Origin: an uncultured Acidobacteriota bacterium
GTDB taxonomy: Bacteria > Acidobacteriota > Thermoanaerobaculia > Gp7-AA8
NCBI GenBank assembly: GCA_963822445.1
Contig: CAWGHO010000001.1
Span: forward strand, 576,001 to 640,000
DNA length: 64,000 nt
Reading direction: 5' to 3'
Positions 30,277-36,837 of the stretch are shown piece by piece. The notes under the pieces are model-generated. The model worked only from the letters and a program-made list of their open reading frames with translations. It did not search any database and was not told the origin of the DNA. The first letter of the stretch is position 1; each line of letters starts with the position of its first letter. Both the position numbers and the translations under genes were made by a program.

Positions 30277-31398
30277 CTAACGCGCGAGGGCGTTCTGCAG
30301 ATCGTCGATCAGGTCCTGCGGATGCTCGAGCCCGACCGAAACGCGAAGCAGATTCTGGGCGGTGCGGCTTCCCGGTCCTTCGCTGGAGTTGCGATGCTCG
30401 ATCAGACTCTCCACCCCGCCCAGGGACGTGGCCCGTACGAAAAGCCGCATCTTCGCGGTCACCGCCAGCGCCTCTTCCCGTCCACCGCGCACGAGAAACG
30501 ACAGCATTCCGCCGAATGCGGACATCTGTCGTTTCGCCACGTCATGCCGCTGATGCGTTTCCAGTCCCGGGTAGAACACCATTTCGACGCGAGGGTGCGT
30601 CGTCAGAAAACGCGCAACGAGCATCGCGTTCTCGCTCTGCACGCGCATGCGTGCGGACAGCGTGCGAAGCCCGCGCAGGACCAGCCAGGCATTGAACGGT
30701 GAAGCAACGCCGCCGACGAGCTTGCGCACATGCTCGATCCTGTCGAACAGCTCATCACGCGTGCGAAAAGTGAGCGATCCGCCCTGCACGTCGCTGTGGC
30801 CGCCCATGTATTTCGTCGTCGAGTGCAGCACCAGATCTGCGCCGAGCTCGATCGGCCGCTGCAACGCCGGCGTGGCGAAGGTGCCGTCGGCAAGAAACAG
30901 CGCGCCGCGCGAATGGGCGAGCTCCGCGAGCGCCGCGAGATCGACGACTTTCATCAGAGGATTCGATGGCGACTCCGCCCACACGATCCGCGTCCCGCTT
31001 CGCATCGCCTTCCGCACCGCATCGATGTCTTCCATCGCCACGGCATCCCAGGTCAATCCCCACTGGCTGAAGAAATCCTCGGCCAGAACGCGATAGCCGT
31101 AGTAGGCATCGTCCGGCAGAAGGACGTGTGATCCGCGCGGCAGCGACTGCAGCACCGCCGCACCGGCGGCCATGCCCGAGGCGAAGAAGAGGGCGGCGGC
31201 GCCGGAATCGATGTCCGCCAAGGCCTCCTCCAGGCGATTCTGGGTGGGATTGCCATCGCGCACGTAACTGAAGCCATGCGACGGCTCCCCTTCCGCCGTT
31301 CGCTCGAAAGTCGTGGAAAGATGGATGGGCGGCGCGATCGCACCAGTCTCCGCATCCGGTCTGTTCCCGCTGTGGACCAGTTTCGTGTTGATATGCAT
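30277..31398 (-). CDS. Cystathionine gamma-synthase/lyase family PLP enzyme
   Basis: YVRDGNPT, FASGMAA, ESPSNP, HSTTKYMGGHSD, SLGGVESL. Confidence 0.93.
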   Translation of the reverse strand: MHINTKLVHSGNRPDAETGAIAPPIHLSTTFERTAEGEPSHGFSYVRDGNPTQNRLEEALADIDSGAAALFFASGMAAGAAVLQSLPRGSHVLLPDDAYYGYRVLAEDFFSQWGLTWDAVAMEDIDAVRKAMRSGTRIVWAESPSNPLMKVVDLAALAELAHSRGALFLADGTFATPALQRPIELGADLVLHSTTKYMGGHSDVQGGSLTFRTRDELFDRIEHVRKLVGGVASPFNAWLVLRGLRTLSARMRVQSENAMLVARFLTTHPRVEMVFYPGLETHQRHDVAKRQMSAFGGMLSFLVRGGREEALAVTAKMRLFVRATSLGGVESLIEHRNSSEGPGSRTAQNLLRVSVGLEHPQDLIDDLQNALAR

Positions 31399-31440: not shown

Positions 31441-31465
31441 GTTGAGCTGCATCGGGGGCGATGTA

Positions 31466-33127
31466 ATGGCCCATGGAAGACAGGCGTTCATTCTCACGCT
31501 CGACGACGACGAAGCCGTCGGAGCGTTCGTAAAGGCCGCGCTCCCCGGCACGCGCTTCCGGACGACATGGAGCGGCGACGTCGCCGGCGCCATCAGCGTG
31601 GTCGAGAATGAGCCACCGGATCTCGCGATCATCGACATCGACCTGAACGCGGGCGGCACCGGCTGGGAGCTCCTGCGATTCCTGCGCACGAATCCCGACA
31701 CCGCGAACGTTCCCGTGGTCATGCTGACCGGCGCGTCGGACACGCTCAATCGCGAGCGCTCCCTGCGCCTGGGCGCCGACCGCTATCTGATCAAGCCCGT
31801 TCGGCCCGAAACGCTCCGCCGCGTCCTCGACGAGATGCTGTCGATCCGCGACGACATGTGGTGGACGATGACCCTGAACACCGATCAGGTGTCGCGGATG
31901 CGCGATCTCTTCGTCGACCCGACCACGGACGTCGCCACGCTCGCCGTGGTGGTCGACGATCTCCGCAAGCTGATCGAGAGCGGTGAAACGCTGCAGGTGT
32001 TCTGCATCGAGATCGAGCCGCTGTTCCGCATCGGCGAGCGCAATCTGTGGGAGTCGTTCGACATCCTCCGCCGCGAGTTCGTCCGCGGCCTGCACGTGAT
32101 GATCGGCCCGATCCTCGGCAACGACGTGATCATCGCCACCAGCCATTCCGGCGCGAATGATTTCTACTGCTTCGTCCGCGAGCAGCGCTTCGCGAATCTC
32201 ACCCAGATCTCCCGGGACCTCGAGCGCGTGGCCCGAAGCTCACTGAAAGCATTGCCAGTGGATTCGTCGCTCGCCGAGGAAGTGGTGGTGTTTGCAGGGG
32301 CTTCGGTTACGCAGCGACAGCCGATCTTCGCGCCGCGCATCCTCTACAACGCCGTTCGCGAGGCGAAGGACACCGCCGAACGCCGCGAGACGCGCTACTA
32401 CGCCGCGATGCGCGAGCGTCTGGTTCGTGTGATTCAGGAGAAAGCGATCACCACGCTCTTTCAGCCCGTAGTGAATCTCGAGACCCGCGCGATCGTCGGA
32501 TATGAGGCTCTCTCCCGCGGACCCGCCGGAACGGAGCTGGAGAATCCGGAAGTGCTGTTCGAGCTGGCCCGCGACTTCGATCTGGTGTGGGAGCTGGAAG
32601 CGCTGTGCATCCAGAACGTGCTGCCCTGGCTGGACGACGTCTGCTCGCGCGGCTTCCTCTTCTTCAATCTCGAGTCCCAGTTCATTCAACAGCTCCAGCA
32701 GCGCGGCACGGACGTCTTCGATCCGTTCTTCCGCTGCAACCGGCAGATCGTGATCGAGGTGACGGAGCGCAGCGCGATCCGCGACTACCGGACATTCCGC
32801 CACACGCTGCACAACCTCAAGACGATGGGATTCAGGATCGCCATCGACGACTGCGGCTCGGGATACGCAACGCTGGAAGCAGTGGCCGAGCTGCGGCCCG
32901 ATTACCTGAAGGTGGGCCACTCGCTGTTTCACGGCGTCGAAAACGATCCGATCCGCCGGCGGCTAGTGGAGCTGGTCGCACGCTGCGCGGATACGATCGG
33001 CGCGCGCACGATCGCCGAGGCGATCGAGAGCGAGGAGCAACTCCGCGTCTGCCGCGAGCTGGGGATCACCGAGGGGCAGGGGTTCCTGCTCGCGCGGCCC
33101 GCGCCGTGGGGCGAGCTGGTGGCGTAG
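31466..33127 (+). CDS. REC - degenerate GGDEF - EAL c-di-GMP phosphodiesterase
   Basis: Receiver DDD/IIDIDL/KP; SGANDF at the GGDEF position; YEALSR, IEVTE, DDCGSGY, QGFLLARP. Confidence 0.88.
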   Translation: MAHGRQAFILTLDDDEAVGAFVKAALPGTRFRTTWSGDVAGAISVVENEPPDLAIIDIDLNAGGTGWELLRFLRTNPDTANVPVVMLTGASDTLNRERSLRLGADRYLIKPVRPETLRRVLDEMLSIRDDMWWTMTLNTDQVSRMRDLFVDPTTDVATLAVVVDDLRKLIESGETLQVFCIEIEPLFRIGERNLWESFDILRREFVRGLHVMIGPILGNDVIIATSHSGANDFYCFVREQRFANLTQISRDLERVARSSLKALPVDSSLAEEVVVFAGASVTQRQPIFAPRILYNAVREAKDTAERRETRYYAAMRERLVRVIQEKAITTLFQPVVNLETRAIVGYEALSRGPAGTELENPEVLFELARDFDLVWELEALCIQNVLPWLDDVCSRGFLFFNLESQFIQQLQQRGTDVFDPFFRCNRQIVIEVTERSAIRDYRTFRHTLHNLKTMGFRIAIDDCGSGYATLEAVAELRPDYLKVGHSLFHGVENDPIRRRLVELVARCADTIGARTIAEAIESEEQLRVCRELGITEGQGFLLARPAPWGELVA

Positions 33128-33274
33128 GCACGAGCAACCGGGAGGCCTCCGGCGGGGCGGCCACGGGCCGCAGCGCTGGTTGTGCCTTCTGCCGTACTCG
33201 CGGTAGCTGGCGCGGATCGCGTTCACGCCAACATTAGCGCTGCCGGCCCGTGGCCGGCCCGCCTATAGCTTGTC

Positions 33275-33520
33275 CGGCCGTCTCTCCGCTTCTCCCTCAG
33301 CCCTCAGAGAAGTACCCGTTGGGTGGCAATCGGGAGAATCGGGTTCAGGCGGCGCGATACTGAGAAGAAGGGTTCGTCCCGCTACGAATTCCGCCCGTGT
33401 TCGGATCGACGAATCCCTCCGGACTTTCGAGCGGGACGAAGTGCTTTGGCCCGAAACGCATTCTCAGATGCTGTCGGAGCACGACTCGACTATAGGCCTT
33501 GCGCGCGGCCAAAGCCAACC
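33275..33520 (+). ncRNA. Predicted IS110 bridge RNA (5' stem, target-binding loop, donor-binding loop); ends approximate
   Basis: Stems TTCGTCCCGCT/AGCGGGACGAA (33373-33440) and GCTTTGGCC/GGCCAAAGC (33443-33515) enclose guides matching the target and the donor junction. Confidence 0.8.
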
Positions 33521-33535
33521 CGAAGGGAGGGTGTG

Positions 33536-34780
33536 ATGAGCGAGTTCGAGTTTGGGGCGTTGGTGGGACTGGATTGGGGTGACACATCGCACGAGGTGGC
33601 TCTTTGGGACGAGCAGCAGCAGACGTGCACGAACGAGCGCATCGAGCACACGCCTGCGGCTCTGCGCGCATGGATCGAAGCGCTGCAGGCGCGCTTCGGC
33701 GGGGCACCGATCGCCGTGGCCATCGAGCAGTCCCGCGGCGCGGTCTTCGACGCGCTCAGCGGCTATCCGTTCGTCACGTTGTATCCGATCAACCCACGCA
33801 GTGCAGCCCGGTATCGTGAGGCGTTTCATCCGAGCCTTTCGAAAGACGATCCGACCGACGCGGCGTCCTTGCTCGACCTGCTCCGTAAGCACCGCAACGA
33901 GCTGCGCCCGTTCATCGCCGACGACGCTTCTACGCGGCTGCTGCGGCTTCTGACCGAGGATCGGCGGGAGCTCGTCGATCAGAGGACGCAACACGTCCAA
34001 CGCATGACCGATCGGCTCAAGACGTACTACCCGCAGGCGCTCCGGTGGGCCGGCGCGTTGATTACGGCCCAGGCCTGTGACTTCCTCGAACGCTGGCCGA
34101 CGCTCGAGGCCATCCAAAGGGCTCGGCCGTCCGCGATACGGAGGTTCTATGCGGGTCATCATCACGCGGCCGCGTGGATCGACCAGAGGCTCGCCGAGAT
34201 CCGTTCAGAGGTCGCGTTCCACGACGACCAGGTCACCACTGACGCTGCCGTGCTGCTGATCGGAAGCGAGGTTGCGCAGATCCGGGCCCTCAACACGAGC
34301 ATCGCCACGTACGACCAGAAGATCTCGGCGGCGTTCGCCGCCCACCAGGACGCGTCGATCTTCGCGAGCTTCCCTGGCGCCGGCCAACAGCTCGCGCCGC
34401 GGCTCGCCGCCGCCTTCGGGACCGATCGCAAGCGCTTCGGCAGCGCCGTCAACGTCGCCACCCGAAGCGGCATCGCCCCGGTTCTCCGCCGGAGCGGCAA
34501 AACGGCGGTCGTGCACATGCGCTGGGCCTGTCCGAAGTTCCTGCGTCAGACGTTCCATGAGTACGCCCGCGTGTCGATCGGTCAGTCCGAATGGGCTCGA
34601 GCCTTCTACAAGCAGCAACGCGCGCGCGGACACAGCCACCACGAGGCTATCCGCACGCTCGCTTACCGCTGGATCCGCGTCCTTTACGCCTGCTGGAACA
34701 ATCGCACCGTCTACGACGAAGCTCTCTATCTGCGGCAGCTCGCCACCCGAGGCTCAACCCTCGCCACAGCTGCTCCCTGA
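33536..34780 (+). CDS. IS110 family DEDD recombinase/transposase
   Basis: GGAGG RBS; GLDWG, AIEQ, KDDPTDA (DEDD); FPGAG, GIAP..RSG catalytic Ser. Confidence 0.95.
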   Translation: MSEFEFGALVGLDWGDTSHEVALWDEQQQTCTNERIEHTPAALRAWIEALQARFGGAPIAVAIEQSRGAVFDALSGYPFVTLYPINPRSAARYREAFHPSLSKDDPTDAASLLDLLRKHRNELRPFIADDASTRLLRLLTEDRRELVDQRTQHVQRMTDRLKTYYPQALRWAGALITAQACDFLERWPTLEAIQRARPSAIRRFYAGHHHAAAWIDQRLAEIRSEVAFHDDQVTTDAAVLLIGSEVAQIRALNTSIATYDQKISAAFAAHQDASIFASFPGAGQQLAPRLAAAFGTDRKRFGSAVNVATRSGIAPVLRRSGKTAVVHMRWACPKFLRQTFHEYARVSIGQSEWARAFYKQQRARGHSHHEAIRTLAYRWIRVLYACWNNRTVYDEALYLRQLATRGSTLATAAP

Positions 34781-34781
34781 C

Positions 34782-34787
34782 TTGACA
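34782..34787 (+). promoter_or_regulatory. -35 box (TTGACA) of the circular-junction promoter
   Basis: Lies 17 nt from TATAGC (33264) once the ends are joined through one CC. Confidence 0.75.
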
Positions 34788-34851
34788 GGAAGGCTCAGAT
34801 GTCCGGAGGCCTCCCGGTCGGTCGTGTCATCGCTACAATACGACCACACCG

Positions 34852-36837
34852 ATGACATCGACCGTCCGGAAGGCCCTCGTCCGCGCGGGCCAGATTGTGT
34901 TGACCTTCGCCGTCTTCGCGTTCTTCAACGCCATCGCCTTCCACTTCGAGATCGAAAACGGCGTCTCGATTCTTTTCCCCGCCACGGCCATCTCCATCAT
35001 CGCCTGCATGTGGCTCGGCGTCTGGGGAGCCATCGGCGTCATCCTCGGCACCATCGTCACGCCGTGGGGTGCGGTCACCGCGTCGCAGCTCGTGATCAGC
35101 GGCGTGTTGGCGGCGCTCGAAGGGCTCATCCCCTACTACGTCTTTCGATTCCGGCGCGATCTCACGGAAGACCTGCGGGACATGAAGTCGCTGGTCGCGT
35201 TCCTGCTGTTCGGAACGATCATCAACAGCGCCATCAGCGCCATCCTCGGCAATCTGCTCGTCATTCCTCATCCGCCCGGCGAGACGATCGTGTGGCGGCA
35301 GGTGTTCGTCTGGTGGATCGCCGACTTCACCGCGGCGCTGCTCATCGCCACGCCGATTCTCGCGTTCGGCGGGACGCTCTTCCGCCGCGTCCGAGACCAC
35401 GACGAGCGCCCGCGCACGATCGGCAACGCGCTGCAGATCGTCACGGTCATCATCCTTCTCGGATTCGCGGCGTCCTTCGCCATCCGTACCTATCTCCTGA
35501 ACCGTCTCGAACAGGAGCGTCTCGATCAGCAGCAGATGTGGATCGGCGCGCAGGAAACGCTGAACCGGATGCACAGCAACTTCTTGCGCGCGGCCTTCAT
35601 CGATCCCGACGATCCCGGCGCGGAGGCGAAGCTCGACGCCGCGCGGCGCACGAACGAGGAGTTCATCCGCTCGATTCAGGACGCGACCGCCGGCGCATCC
35701 GATGAGCTGAAGCGCGAGCTCCCGCTGGTCGGCGCGGCCACGGCGCGGTGGTTCGCGACGGCGAAGTTGCGAGCCGACGGCGGGGAGGCCCATCAGACCG
35801 GCCGGCGCATCCTCGGCATCCGCGGAATGATGGATCGCGCCAACGCCCGGGCCTGGGAGAAGTTCACGGTCACGCGGCAAAAGATCATGTTCGTCGCGGC
35901 CGTCGTCGACGCGATCGTCTTCTCGATCCTGCTCCTGGCCACGACCACGCTCCTGTACACGATCTCCCGGCCGTTCGCGCAGTTGCGGGCGGGAATCCGG
36001 TCGATTCGCGAGGGAGATCCCTTCGATGCCACGCGAGTCGACTCGCGCTACCTCGAATTCCGATCCATCGCCGCGACGCTGGAGGAAACGGCGGCCGAGT
36101 TACGCCGCCGCGAGGAAGAGTTGCGCTTGCAGACGGAGAAAGCCATCCGCGCCTCGCGTCACAAGAGCGAGTTCCTGGCGAAGATGTCCCACGAGCTCCG
36201 CACGCCCCTCAATTCGATCATCGGCTTTTCCGACCTCCTCGCCGAACAGGAGACGACCATCTCCACGGAGAAGCGCCTGGCCTTTCTCGACAACGTGGCC
36301 AACAGCGCCCGGCATCTGCTGAAGCTGATCAACGACCTGCTCGACATCGCCAAGGTCGAATCGGGAAAGATGAAGCTGCATCTCGAGAACGTCGACCTGC
36401 GCATGAGCATCGCCAGCACCGTGGCCTCGACGCAGCCGCTGTTCGAGCGCAAACGGCAGGAAGTGGAGATCCGCACGCCGGATACGCCGATGATCGCCCA
36501 CGCCGACGCGGGGCGGATCGAGCAGGTCCTGCTCAACCTCCTGTCGAACGCAAACAAGTTCACGCCCGAAGGGGAGAAGATCGTCGTCAGCGGCGGCGCG
36601 GAAGCGGCCATGTGGCGGATCGAAGTCGCCGACCGCGGCATCGGCATCAGTCGCGACGATCAGGACCGCATCTTCGACGAGTTCGAGCAGGTCCAGTCCT
36701 CCGCCACCCACTCCACCGGCACCGGCCTCGGCCTGGCCCTGGCCCGTCGATTCGTCGAAGCGCACGGGGGGACGATTCAGGTGGAGAGCGCCCTCGGCGC
36801 GGGGGCGAGGTTCAGCGTGCTTTTGCCTCGCGCCTGA
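34852..36837 (+). CDS. MASE1-type membrane sensor histidine kinase
   Basis: TM N-terminus with WWIAD; MSHELRTPL, NLLSNANKF, DRGIGI, GTGLGL. Confidence 0.92.
   Translation: MTSTVRKALVRAGQIVLTFAVFAFFNAIAFHFEIENGVSILFPATAISIIACMWLGVWGAIGVILGTIVTPWGAVTASQLVISGVLAALEGLIPYYVFRFRRDLTEDLRDMKSLVAFLLFGTIINSAISAILGNLLVIPHPPGETIVWRQVFVWWIADFTAALLIATPILAFGGTLFRRVRDHDERPRTIGNALQIVTVIILLGFAASFAIRTYLLNRLEQERLDQQQMWIGAQETLNRMHSNFLRAAFIDPDDPGAEAKLDAARRTNEEFIRSIQDATAGASDELKRELPLVGAATARWFATAKLRADGGEAHQTGRRILGIRGMMDRANARAWEKFTVTRQKIMFVAAVVDAIVFSILLLATTTLLYTISRPFAQLRAGIRSIREGDPFDATRVDSRYLEFRSIAATLEETAAELRRREEELRLQTEKAIRASRHKSEFLAKMSHELRTPLNSIIGFSDLLAEQETTISTEKRLAFLDNVANSARHLLKLINDLLDIAKVESGKMKLHLENVDLRMSIASTVASTQPLFERKRQEVEIRTPDTPMIAHADAGRIEQVLLNLLSNANKFTPEGEKIVVSGGAEAAMWRIEVADRGIGISRDDQDRIFDEFEQVQSSATHSTGTGLGLALARRFVEAHGGTIQVESALGAGARFSVLLPRA

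Follow-up and report, generated by a model that had tools for sequence, protein, structure and literature searches.

A predicted bridge RNA and its guide code in an IS110-group insertion sequence targeting REP-like repeats of an uncultured Acidobacteriota bacterium

Insertion sequences of the IS110 group can use an RNA, the bridge RNA, to specify both the site they enter and their own ends. In IS621 of E. coli, as the layout is set out by Durrant et al. 2024 (PMC11208160), this RNA carries a target loop and then a donor loop; in both, the 5' strand repeats the left half of the DNA in the same sense, and the 3' strand is complementary to the core and the right half. The account of Hiraizumi et al. 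2024 (PMC11208158) adds a 'handshake': the two bases 3' of each right-hand guide must be unable to pair with the cognate DNA, and once strands have been exchanged they pair with positions 6–7 of the other DNA. By the account of PMC11208160, 85.7% of catalogued IS110-group elements have a predicted bridge RNA, and a 2026 preprint clustered about 181,000 recombinase-adjacent sequences, allowing various cores. The subject here is a 1.54-kb IS110-group insertion sequence at positions 33264–34804 of a stretch of 64,000 nucleotides ('the window') from contig CAWGHO010000001.1 of an uncultured Acidobacteriota bacterium (assembly GCA_963822445.1). An earlier reading made from the letters and open reading frames of the window, without database searches (the sequence-only reading), had proposed that the left end of this element encodes a bridge RNA of the IS621 layout. 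All features described below lie on the plus strand unless stated otherwise.

The segment 33264–34804 is very probably an active-looking IS110-group element that moves by bridge-RNA-guided recombination. This is no new mechanism: it is the published IS621/ISPpu10 mechanism, known since 2024, in a distant, mostly uncultured Acidobacteriota lineage. Direct observation covers the boundaries, the core, covariation of the RNA type in the stems, covariation of the guides with the DNA, and a conserved promoter geometry. Like IS621 as described in PMC11208160 and PMC11208158, the element has its RNA region in the left end, upstream of a recombinase with DEDD and Tnp domains; a target loop before the donor loop; a dinucleotide core, with handshake bases following each right-hand guide; a promoter predicted to re-form where the circle closes; and a REP-type repeat as target. 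It differs in having a core of CC, where the published IS621 core has a near-invariant second T; a right target guide of 7 nt, against 4 nt natively in IS621 (longer ones were already noted in some orthologues by Durrant et al., PMC11208160); and a distance of about 270 nt from terminus to start codon, against a left end of 191 bp. The close recombinase similarity that marks the IS621-like subgroup (IS621, IS622/ISCro4) is not found here, nor is the CT core with near-invariant second T that is a trait of the subgroup. The differences are regarded as lineage-specific settings of a known mechanism. The interest of the locus, then, is that of a lineage distant from IS621 in which all of the published rules hold, handshake included, with a natural CC core and a 7-nt right target guide.

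Two further comparisons help to place it. ISPpu10 of Pseudomonas putida, as reported in bioRxiv 10.64898/2026.03.19.712850, is likewise an IS110-group element that inserts into REP sequences, often convergent pairs less than 200 bp apart with a DNA stem-loop just 5' of the target, and its core too is spanned by the junction promoter. It differs in its CT core and host phylum, and its activity was shown experimentally, whereas the present element is known from sequence alone. Members of the IS1111 group, in the description of PMC11208160, share the recombinase family and the two-loop guide logic; they encode the RNA behind the gene, in the right end, and have long subterminal inverted repeats, whereas here the RNA lies upstream of the gene and the right end extends for only about 24 nt after the stop codon.

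The ends of the element were fixed within its own genome. BLAST against the host genome (6.0 Mb) found 10 full or near-full copies (96–100% identity) and one locus with partial copies. The junctions are the same in 10 of 10 copies, ...CGCC|TATAGC on the left and ...CAGATGT|CCGGAGG on the right, 1538–1539 bp apart, and all ten are inserted in one REP-like repeat. The 64 bases left of the element belong to this dispersed repeat, of which the genome holds at least 19 unoccupied copies; in 19 of 19 the site reads ...CCCGCC|GGAGGCC, with CC present once only. Occupied junctions and empty sites with a single CC together confirm the boundaries and the CC core, which is duplicated, or shared, upon insertion; the element is thus 33264–34802 plus one CC. 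Terminal inverted repeats are absent, the termini being TATAG... and ...CAGATGT. The left target CGGCCCG (7 nt) and the left copy of the core (33262–33263) occupy 33255–33263, followed by the left terminus TATAGC at 33264–33269, which is the right-donor half. At the other end, the right terminus CTCAGATGT, the left-donor half, lies with the right copy of the core (34803–34804) at 34794–34804, and the core with the right target, CC+GGAGG, at 34803–34809. An 11-nt target motif occurs 46 times in the genome and is occupied by full copies at 10 of these places.

Comparison beyond this genome rests on loci collected with a 16-homolog recombinase alignment as query, 79 from species-representative genomes and 80 from metagenome contigs, and on a further 30 loci from relatives of the window genome (matches in 9 of 41 genomes, its own included). 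Recombinases of the sampled loci are 41–100% identical to that of the window. Parsing into ends and loops succeeded for 153 loci; 11 more could not be parsed with the motif anchors. For the RNA, the stretch corresponding to 33370–33518 was taken from 102 distinct left ends that could be placed, and reduced to 58 sequences at most 93% alike, spanning recombinases 45–100% identical.

The stretch 33373–33516 folds into a pair of internal loops, both closed by stems and both divided by a short hairpin. The target-binding loop (33373–33440) is closed by 33373–33383 with 33430–33440 and, beyond a bulged A that interrupts the stem between its two segments, by 33385–33388 with 33426–33429; its inner hairpin is 33400–33403/33410–33413. 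The donor-binding loop (33443–33516) has an outer stem (33443–33451 with 33508–33516, or 33444–33451 with 33507–33514), a second stem 33457–33460/33500–33503 and an inner hairpin 33473–33476/33482–33485. The sequence-only reading had drawn much of this correctly: the stem of loop 1 runs from 33373 to 33440, the end of its 3' arm, and an inner hairpin does divide each pair of guides. Its stem for loop 2 is also real, with the closing coordinate one base off (33516 rather than 33515).

The covariation expected of a structured RNA can be observed directly in these stems. RNAalifold on the 58-sequence alignment predicted 35 pairs, 30 of them with compensatory double changes; two guide-to-guide pairs in the donor loop were dropped from the set as artefacts of core covariation. 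The resulting structure of 33 pairs in seven helices has standard pairs in 96.0% of cells, against 82.4% in column shuffles, and double changes in 30 of 33 pairs (16.6 in shuffles), amounting to 230 cells (48.8 in shuffles). None of five pairing measures was reached by any of 500 shuffles, and sliding the 3' partners by 1–3 columns lowered pairing to 30–43%. Compensatory pairs occur in all seven helices: helices 1–3, of the target loop, are 92–97% paired, with compensatory change in all pairs except three, and helices 4–7, of the donor loop, are 94–99% paired, with compensatory change in 16 of 16. A fold of the whole left end was not used, its z-score being just −2.0 and its minimum-energy form joining the two target guides to each other. 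The 5' leader of the predicted transcript (33270–33372, start inferred near 33276) is another matter; compensatory changes were found in just 2 of 21 predicted pairs among 9 close homologs, its length differs within the clade, between some 60 and some 220 nt, and no 5' stem-loop is claimed.

The guides of the target loop face the DNA in the published manner. The left guide, CCGCCCG followed by UG (33391–33399), has the same sense as the left target and would pair with the bottom strand; the right guide, CCUCCGG (33416–33422), is the reverse complement of the core CC plus GGAGG. Both had been located at these positions by the sequence-only reading, which took the left one as 7 nt. Its count of 6/7 for the left flank stands at the window copy; the guide is better read as 9 nt. 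The same 6/7 is found at six other copies of the genome and 7/7 at 3 of 10, which lie in a variant of the repeat.

The decisive evidence is that these guides change together with DNA outside the element. A usable left flank was missing in 53 of the 153 loci and a usable right flank in 29; at each locus the left-end candidate was chosen by its preceding core, which had to agree with the core read from the donor loop, so that the target loop played no part in the choice. Compared with its own right flank (as reverse complement), the right target guide agreed at 7/7 positions in 107 of 124 loci, at 6/7 in 16 and at 5/7 in one. Among 35 distinct right guides, one locus each, the five non-core bases were exact in 27, compared with 0.25% of 1190 non-cognate pairings. 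For the left guide, 40 of 47 classes matched the cognate flank at 7/9 or better, compared with 4.7% of 2162 non-cognate pairings; identity by position was 87–99% at positions 2–8 and 23% at position 9. Close relatives illustrate the pattern: the donor loop stays constant and the strands of the target loop vary along with the flanks. Relative L115, 70% identical, lies between GGGAACG-CC and CC-GGCGT and carries the loop guides GGGAACGCC and ACGCCGG; L036, located after CCGGCCG-CC, carries CGGCCGCC. One class, L079, scored low from a misplaced anchor only. A CT-core relative from the genome_contigs set, L057, has guides that fit its own site poorly (4/9 and 5/7), and its nine sister copies score 7–8 of 9; this is a real mismatch, probably a natural off-target insertion.

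The donor loop reads the element's own ends. The left donor guide, CUCAGAUG at 33463–33470, is the same as the right end; that is, the CTCAGATG found there is identical to 34794–34801, as the sequence-only reading had recognized. The right donor guide, CUAUAGG at 33490–33496, is the reverse complement of CC+TATAG (33262–33268), again as that reading had it. TATAG is the invariant left terminus among the parsed homologs, and positions 1–8 of the left donor guide are the same as the right end in 122–126 of 126 loci. At the sole variable position, guide and right end have changed alike in three loci (two A/A, one G/G) and differ in four. The donor loop is nearly invariant outside the base that reads the core, and adds little covariation of its own.

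The handshake bases supply another relation between loop and DNA. In the window, the right guide of the target loop is followed by AC (33423–33424), which complements T and G at positions 7 and 6 of the donor, though not the cognate target; CC follows the right guide of the donor loop (33497–33498), its first base complementary to target position 7 (G). The bases at issue are thus A33423 and C33497. Among the loci compared, the donor-loop base is Watson–Crick complementary to target position 7 in 100 of 100 (87 G:C, 13 C:G; all of 48 classes), and in none of 153 does it complement the T of the cognate donor. The target-loop base is A in all loci, facing a donor T that is invariant (126 of 126), and is complementary to its cognate target position 7 in none of 100.

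These relations bear on a different account of the left end, in which the structure is merely a cis-regulatory 5' leader of the recombinase mRNA, acting on translation or stability; the likeness of the loops to the ends would be a by-product of conserved termini, and the protein would pick the target. The arrangement is suggestive of such a leader: the structure ends 20 nt before the start codon with no terminator between, so that RNA and mRNA are probably one transcript, and the near-invariant donor-loop sequences, taken alone, could be kept for another reason. A leader with no guide role predicts neither the covariation with flanks nor the handshake match, and is disfavoured on that ground: target-loop strands change together with DNA outside the element, in 35 right-guide and 47 left-guide classes, far above the non-cognate level, and the donor-loop handshake base follows target position 7 at every locus where the two were compared. 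This account is judged very unlikely.

The promoter geometry is conserved as well. Directly after the stop codon lies TTGACA (34782–34787), and when the ends are joined on a circle it stands 17 nt from the left-terminal TATAGC, with the spacing of a −35 and a −10 box. Of 126 loci, 119 have a TTGACN at 16–18 nt from the left-terminal TATAG once the circle is closed (17 nt in 104, 18 nt in 15), and 14 of 14 close homologs keep TTGACA itself. After integration, the hexamer at the 17-nt distance before TATAGC reads TGCCGG; the TTGACA-17-TATAGC promoter would form only on the excised circle. TATAG would be right-donor half and −10 box at once, which may explain the near-constant donor. The sole sigma-70-like match in 33100–34900 is antisense, at 33489–33518 on the minus strand (TTGGCT-18-TATAGT), and overlaps the right donor guide on the opposite strand; that guide mirrors the −10-like left terminus, which probably accounts for the match.

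A second alternative supposes that the guide-like segments work as single-stranded DNA: the left end would fold during replication and pair with the sites to be cleaved, like the subterminal hairpins of IS200/IS605 elements. Stem compensation alone cannot separate RNA from single-stranded DNA, and no transcript was seen; none of the sequencing runs containing the element is on record as RNA. The details of the stems speak for RNA: G-U intermediates are frequent on the sense strand only (at two pairs, for example, 10 of the 58 sequences have UG and 11 have GU), and on the complement these would be C-A. Moreover, a promoter reading the RNA strand is assembled on the circle in those 119 of 126 loci; the enzyme is a DEDD/serine IS110 recombinase and not a Y1 HUH transposase; and the role of RNA has been shown biochemically and structurally for the IS110 enzyme family, in the work reported in PMC11208160 and PMC11208158. 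The single-stranded DNA account is accordingly held to be highly improbable.

That the left end encodes a bridge RNA of the published IS110 kind is supported by these comparisons of sequence. Transcription, binding of the RNA by the protein and catalysis would then proceed by analogy with the published IS621 and ISPpu10 work. On excision to a circle, the right-end TTGACA and the left-end TATAGC, now 17 nt apart, would form a promoter; the left-end transcript would fold into two stem-closed internal loops; the DEDD/serine recombinase (33536–34780) would hold this RNA and both DNAs and carry out strand exchange at the CC core; A33423 and C33497, each the first base after a right-hand guide, would pair with position 7 of the other DNA and stabilize the exchanged strands, as in the published handshake; and exchange at CC would place the element in the REP-like repeat (...GGCCCG-CC-GGAGG...). 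The sequence-only inference of an RNA-guided recombinase with IS621-type layout agrees with the published layout and is borne out by the covariation of stems, guides, core and handshake and by the junction promoter; the covariance analysis across homologous left ends that it proposed gave the 30 of 33 compensatory pairs, and loops that covary with flanks.

Several observations weigh against this interpretation. In the window copy the left guide matches just 6/7 non-core bases; the core-facing bases of the left target guide (UG) mismatch CC, as does the CUG after the left donor guide. Boundaries beyond the window genome were set by terminal motifs (TATAG on the left, CTCAGANG+N on the right) and not by empty sites. 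The loci are related, so that raw counts overstate independence and the class-level counts are safer. Rfam returned no family match for 33264–33535 (E up to 10). Similarity of the recombinase to described enzymes is remote and confined to the C-terminal domain (ISCro4, E 1.8e-5; IS621, E 3e-4), another difference from IS621. A consensus scan of the integrated copy found no plus-strand promoter, and the −10 box TATAGC is without the usual final T. Finally, there is the record of sequencing runs already mentioned: four runs were examined, all containing contigs, mostly of relatives, and the one guessed to be RNA yielded a relative's contig over 33257–33552 that continues into unlike flanking DNA, uninformative on transcription either way.

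It might also be supposed that the RNA gene is genuine and the window copy, or the whole family in this genome, an inactive relic, in keeping with the one left-flank mismatch, with a copy that has an internal inversion and three in-frame TGA stops, and with a locus of head-to-head partial copies; this is highly unlikely, as the frame is intact (413–414 aa) in 9 of 10 copies, at least four encode an identical protein and the RNA region scores about 132 bits in all ten with the covariance model, which together indicate recent transposition. (The window sequence is included in that model, so its own score is not independent evidence.) Chance is rejected as an explanation by the guide-flank covariation and by shuffling the 266-nt left end 20,000 times (mononucleotide): 3.8%, 1.1% and 0.3% of the shuffled sequences contained the exact 7-, 7- and 8-mer guide matches taken singly, and none contained all three. 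The 6/7 match of the left guide alone arose in 65%, and is not significant.

The one point notable to specialists, the rest being mechanism already described, is a natural switching of the core. The sequence-only reading had given the element a CC core, as distinct from the CT of IS621. The CC is real; it is not exclusive to this element, as among 124 related loci the core is CC in 63 and CT in 61. Both right-hand guides follow the core: the right target guide ends in the two bases complementary to it in 124 of 124 loci, and the core-reading base of the donor loop (the G or A before the final G of CUAUA-G/A-G) predicts the core after the right end, also in 124 of 124. Unlike in IS621, the left-hand guides here seldom match the second core base (23 of 100 loci for the target loop, 0 of 126 for the donor loop). 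On a FastTree tree of 118 distinct recombinases the core state changes at least three times; the CC pair L158 and L129 is nested among CT elements that share the same target family.

In IS621 and its relatives, according to the structural description in PMC11208158, the second core base is an almost invariant T contacted by the protein backbone; pairing to both core strands is preferred in IS621, by the account of PMC11208160; and engineering work restricts targets to CT or GT cores. A tentative suggestion, put forward as a possibility rather than an expectation, is that the Acidobacteriota-centred clade treats the second core base as RNA-programmed and not as read by the protein. It draws on the even division between CC and CT, from the three or more switches, from both right-hand guides switching along (G with C, A with T) and from left-hand guides that leave the base unpaired. 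If true, the clade would be a natural source of bridge recombinases without the N-T core restriction reported for IS621-type enzymes; the natural CC/CT switch bears on whether that restriction can be relaxed in engineered ones. Full-text literature searching found no paper joining the phrase 'CC core' with bridge RNA or IS110, a weak negative, as cores are given mostly in figures and supplements.

The recombinase gene (33536–34780, 414 aa) is preceded by a ribosome-binding site, GGGAGGG, at 33526–33532. The 485-aa open reading frame (ORF) listed from 33323 was rejected as the gene, being merely an upstream extension of the 414-aa frame. Pfam finds DEDD_Tnp_IS110 (PF01548) at residues 10–166 (1.6e-28; profile positions 1–155 of 155) and Transposase_20 (PF02371) at residues 274–359 (1.3e-11), an architecture of N-terminal DEDD RuvC-like domain and C-terminal Tnp domain. 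E64, D105, D108 and S320 are invariant in the 16-homolog alignment and D13 nearly so, as putative catalytic D-E-D-D residues and serine nucleophile assigned by motifs only; the KxDxxDA and SG motifs align with those of ISCro4. Relatives number in the thousands: 6579 of 8000 scored candidates have E ≤0.001, and the best non-self match is 89% identical. Where the source names them they are IS110 family transposases, mostly from Thermoanaerobaculia metagenome bins.

The covariance model of the RNA, built from the 58-sequence alignment, was run on a sample of 151 genomes from across the phylum and matched in three, one of them the window genome; such patchiness is expected of a mobile element. At G122:C77:1453-1762 (L192/L194) a full match of 122 bits is followed, 46 nt away on the same strand, by a weaker and shorter one of 41.7 bits, which may be a tandem or nested remnant. 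A weak match on the minus strand of the window at 30912–31011, in a coding region (12.2 bits, E 0.12), is most likely chance. An Rfam scan of 33000–35000 gave microRNA and small-RNA matches at chance level only, one of them reflecting the REP hairpin pair at 33155–33259.

With ends, core, target repeat, promoter halves, RNA and guides all located, the element can be annotated precisely, and the position of guides and target repeat makes insertion sites in the window genome predictable. The repeat context covers 33138–33263 and 34805–34825. The insertion lies in one unit of an inverted REP-like pair, 33151–33170 and 33244–33263, which are 95% complementary, and a 7-bp hairpin, GCCGGCC/GGCCGGC, has a 3' arm that overlaps the left target. 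The partner unit, 33151–33170, carries a near-cognate empty site on the minus strand (5/7 to the left guide); the occupied unit is 73 nt away. On either side are a response-regulator/EAL gene (31460–33127) and a MASE1-HisKA-HATPase sensor kinase gene (34852–36837), both on the strand of the element; the insertion may separate a signalling gene pair.

Two rearranged loci of the host genome complete the inventory of copies. In the copy at G000:C3:469277-470860, a 161-bp internal segment corresponding to window 33678–33838 is inverted in place, with breakpoints unlike target or donor. At G000:C1:940343-941445, two fragments from the 3' part of the element (query 911–1619 and 1225–1619) meet head to head at one point, as either a rearrangement or an assembly artefact.

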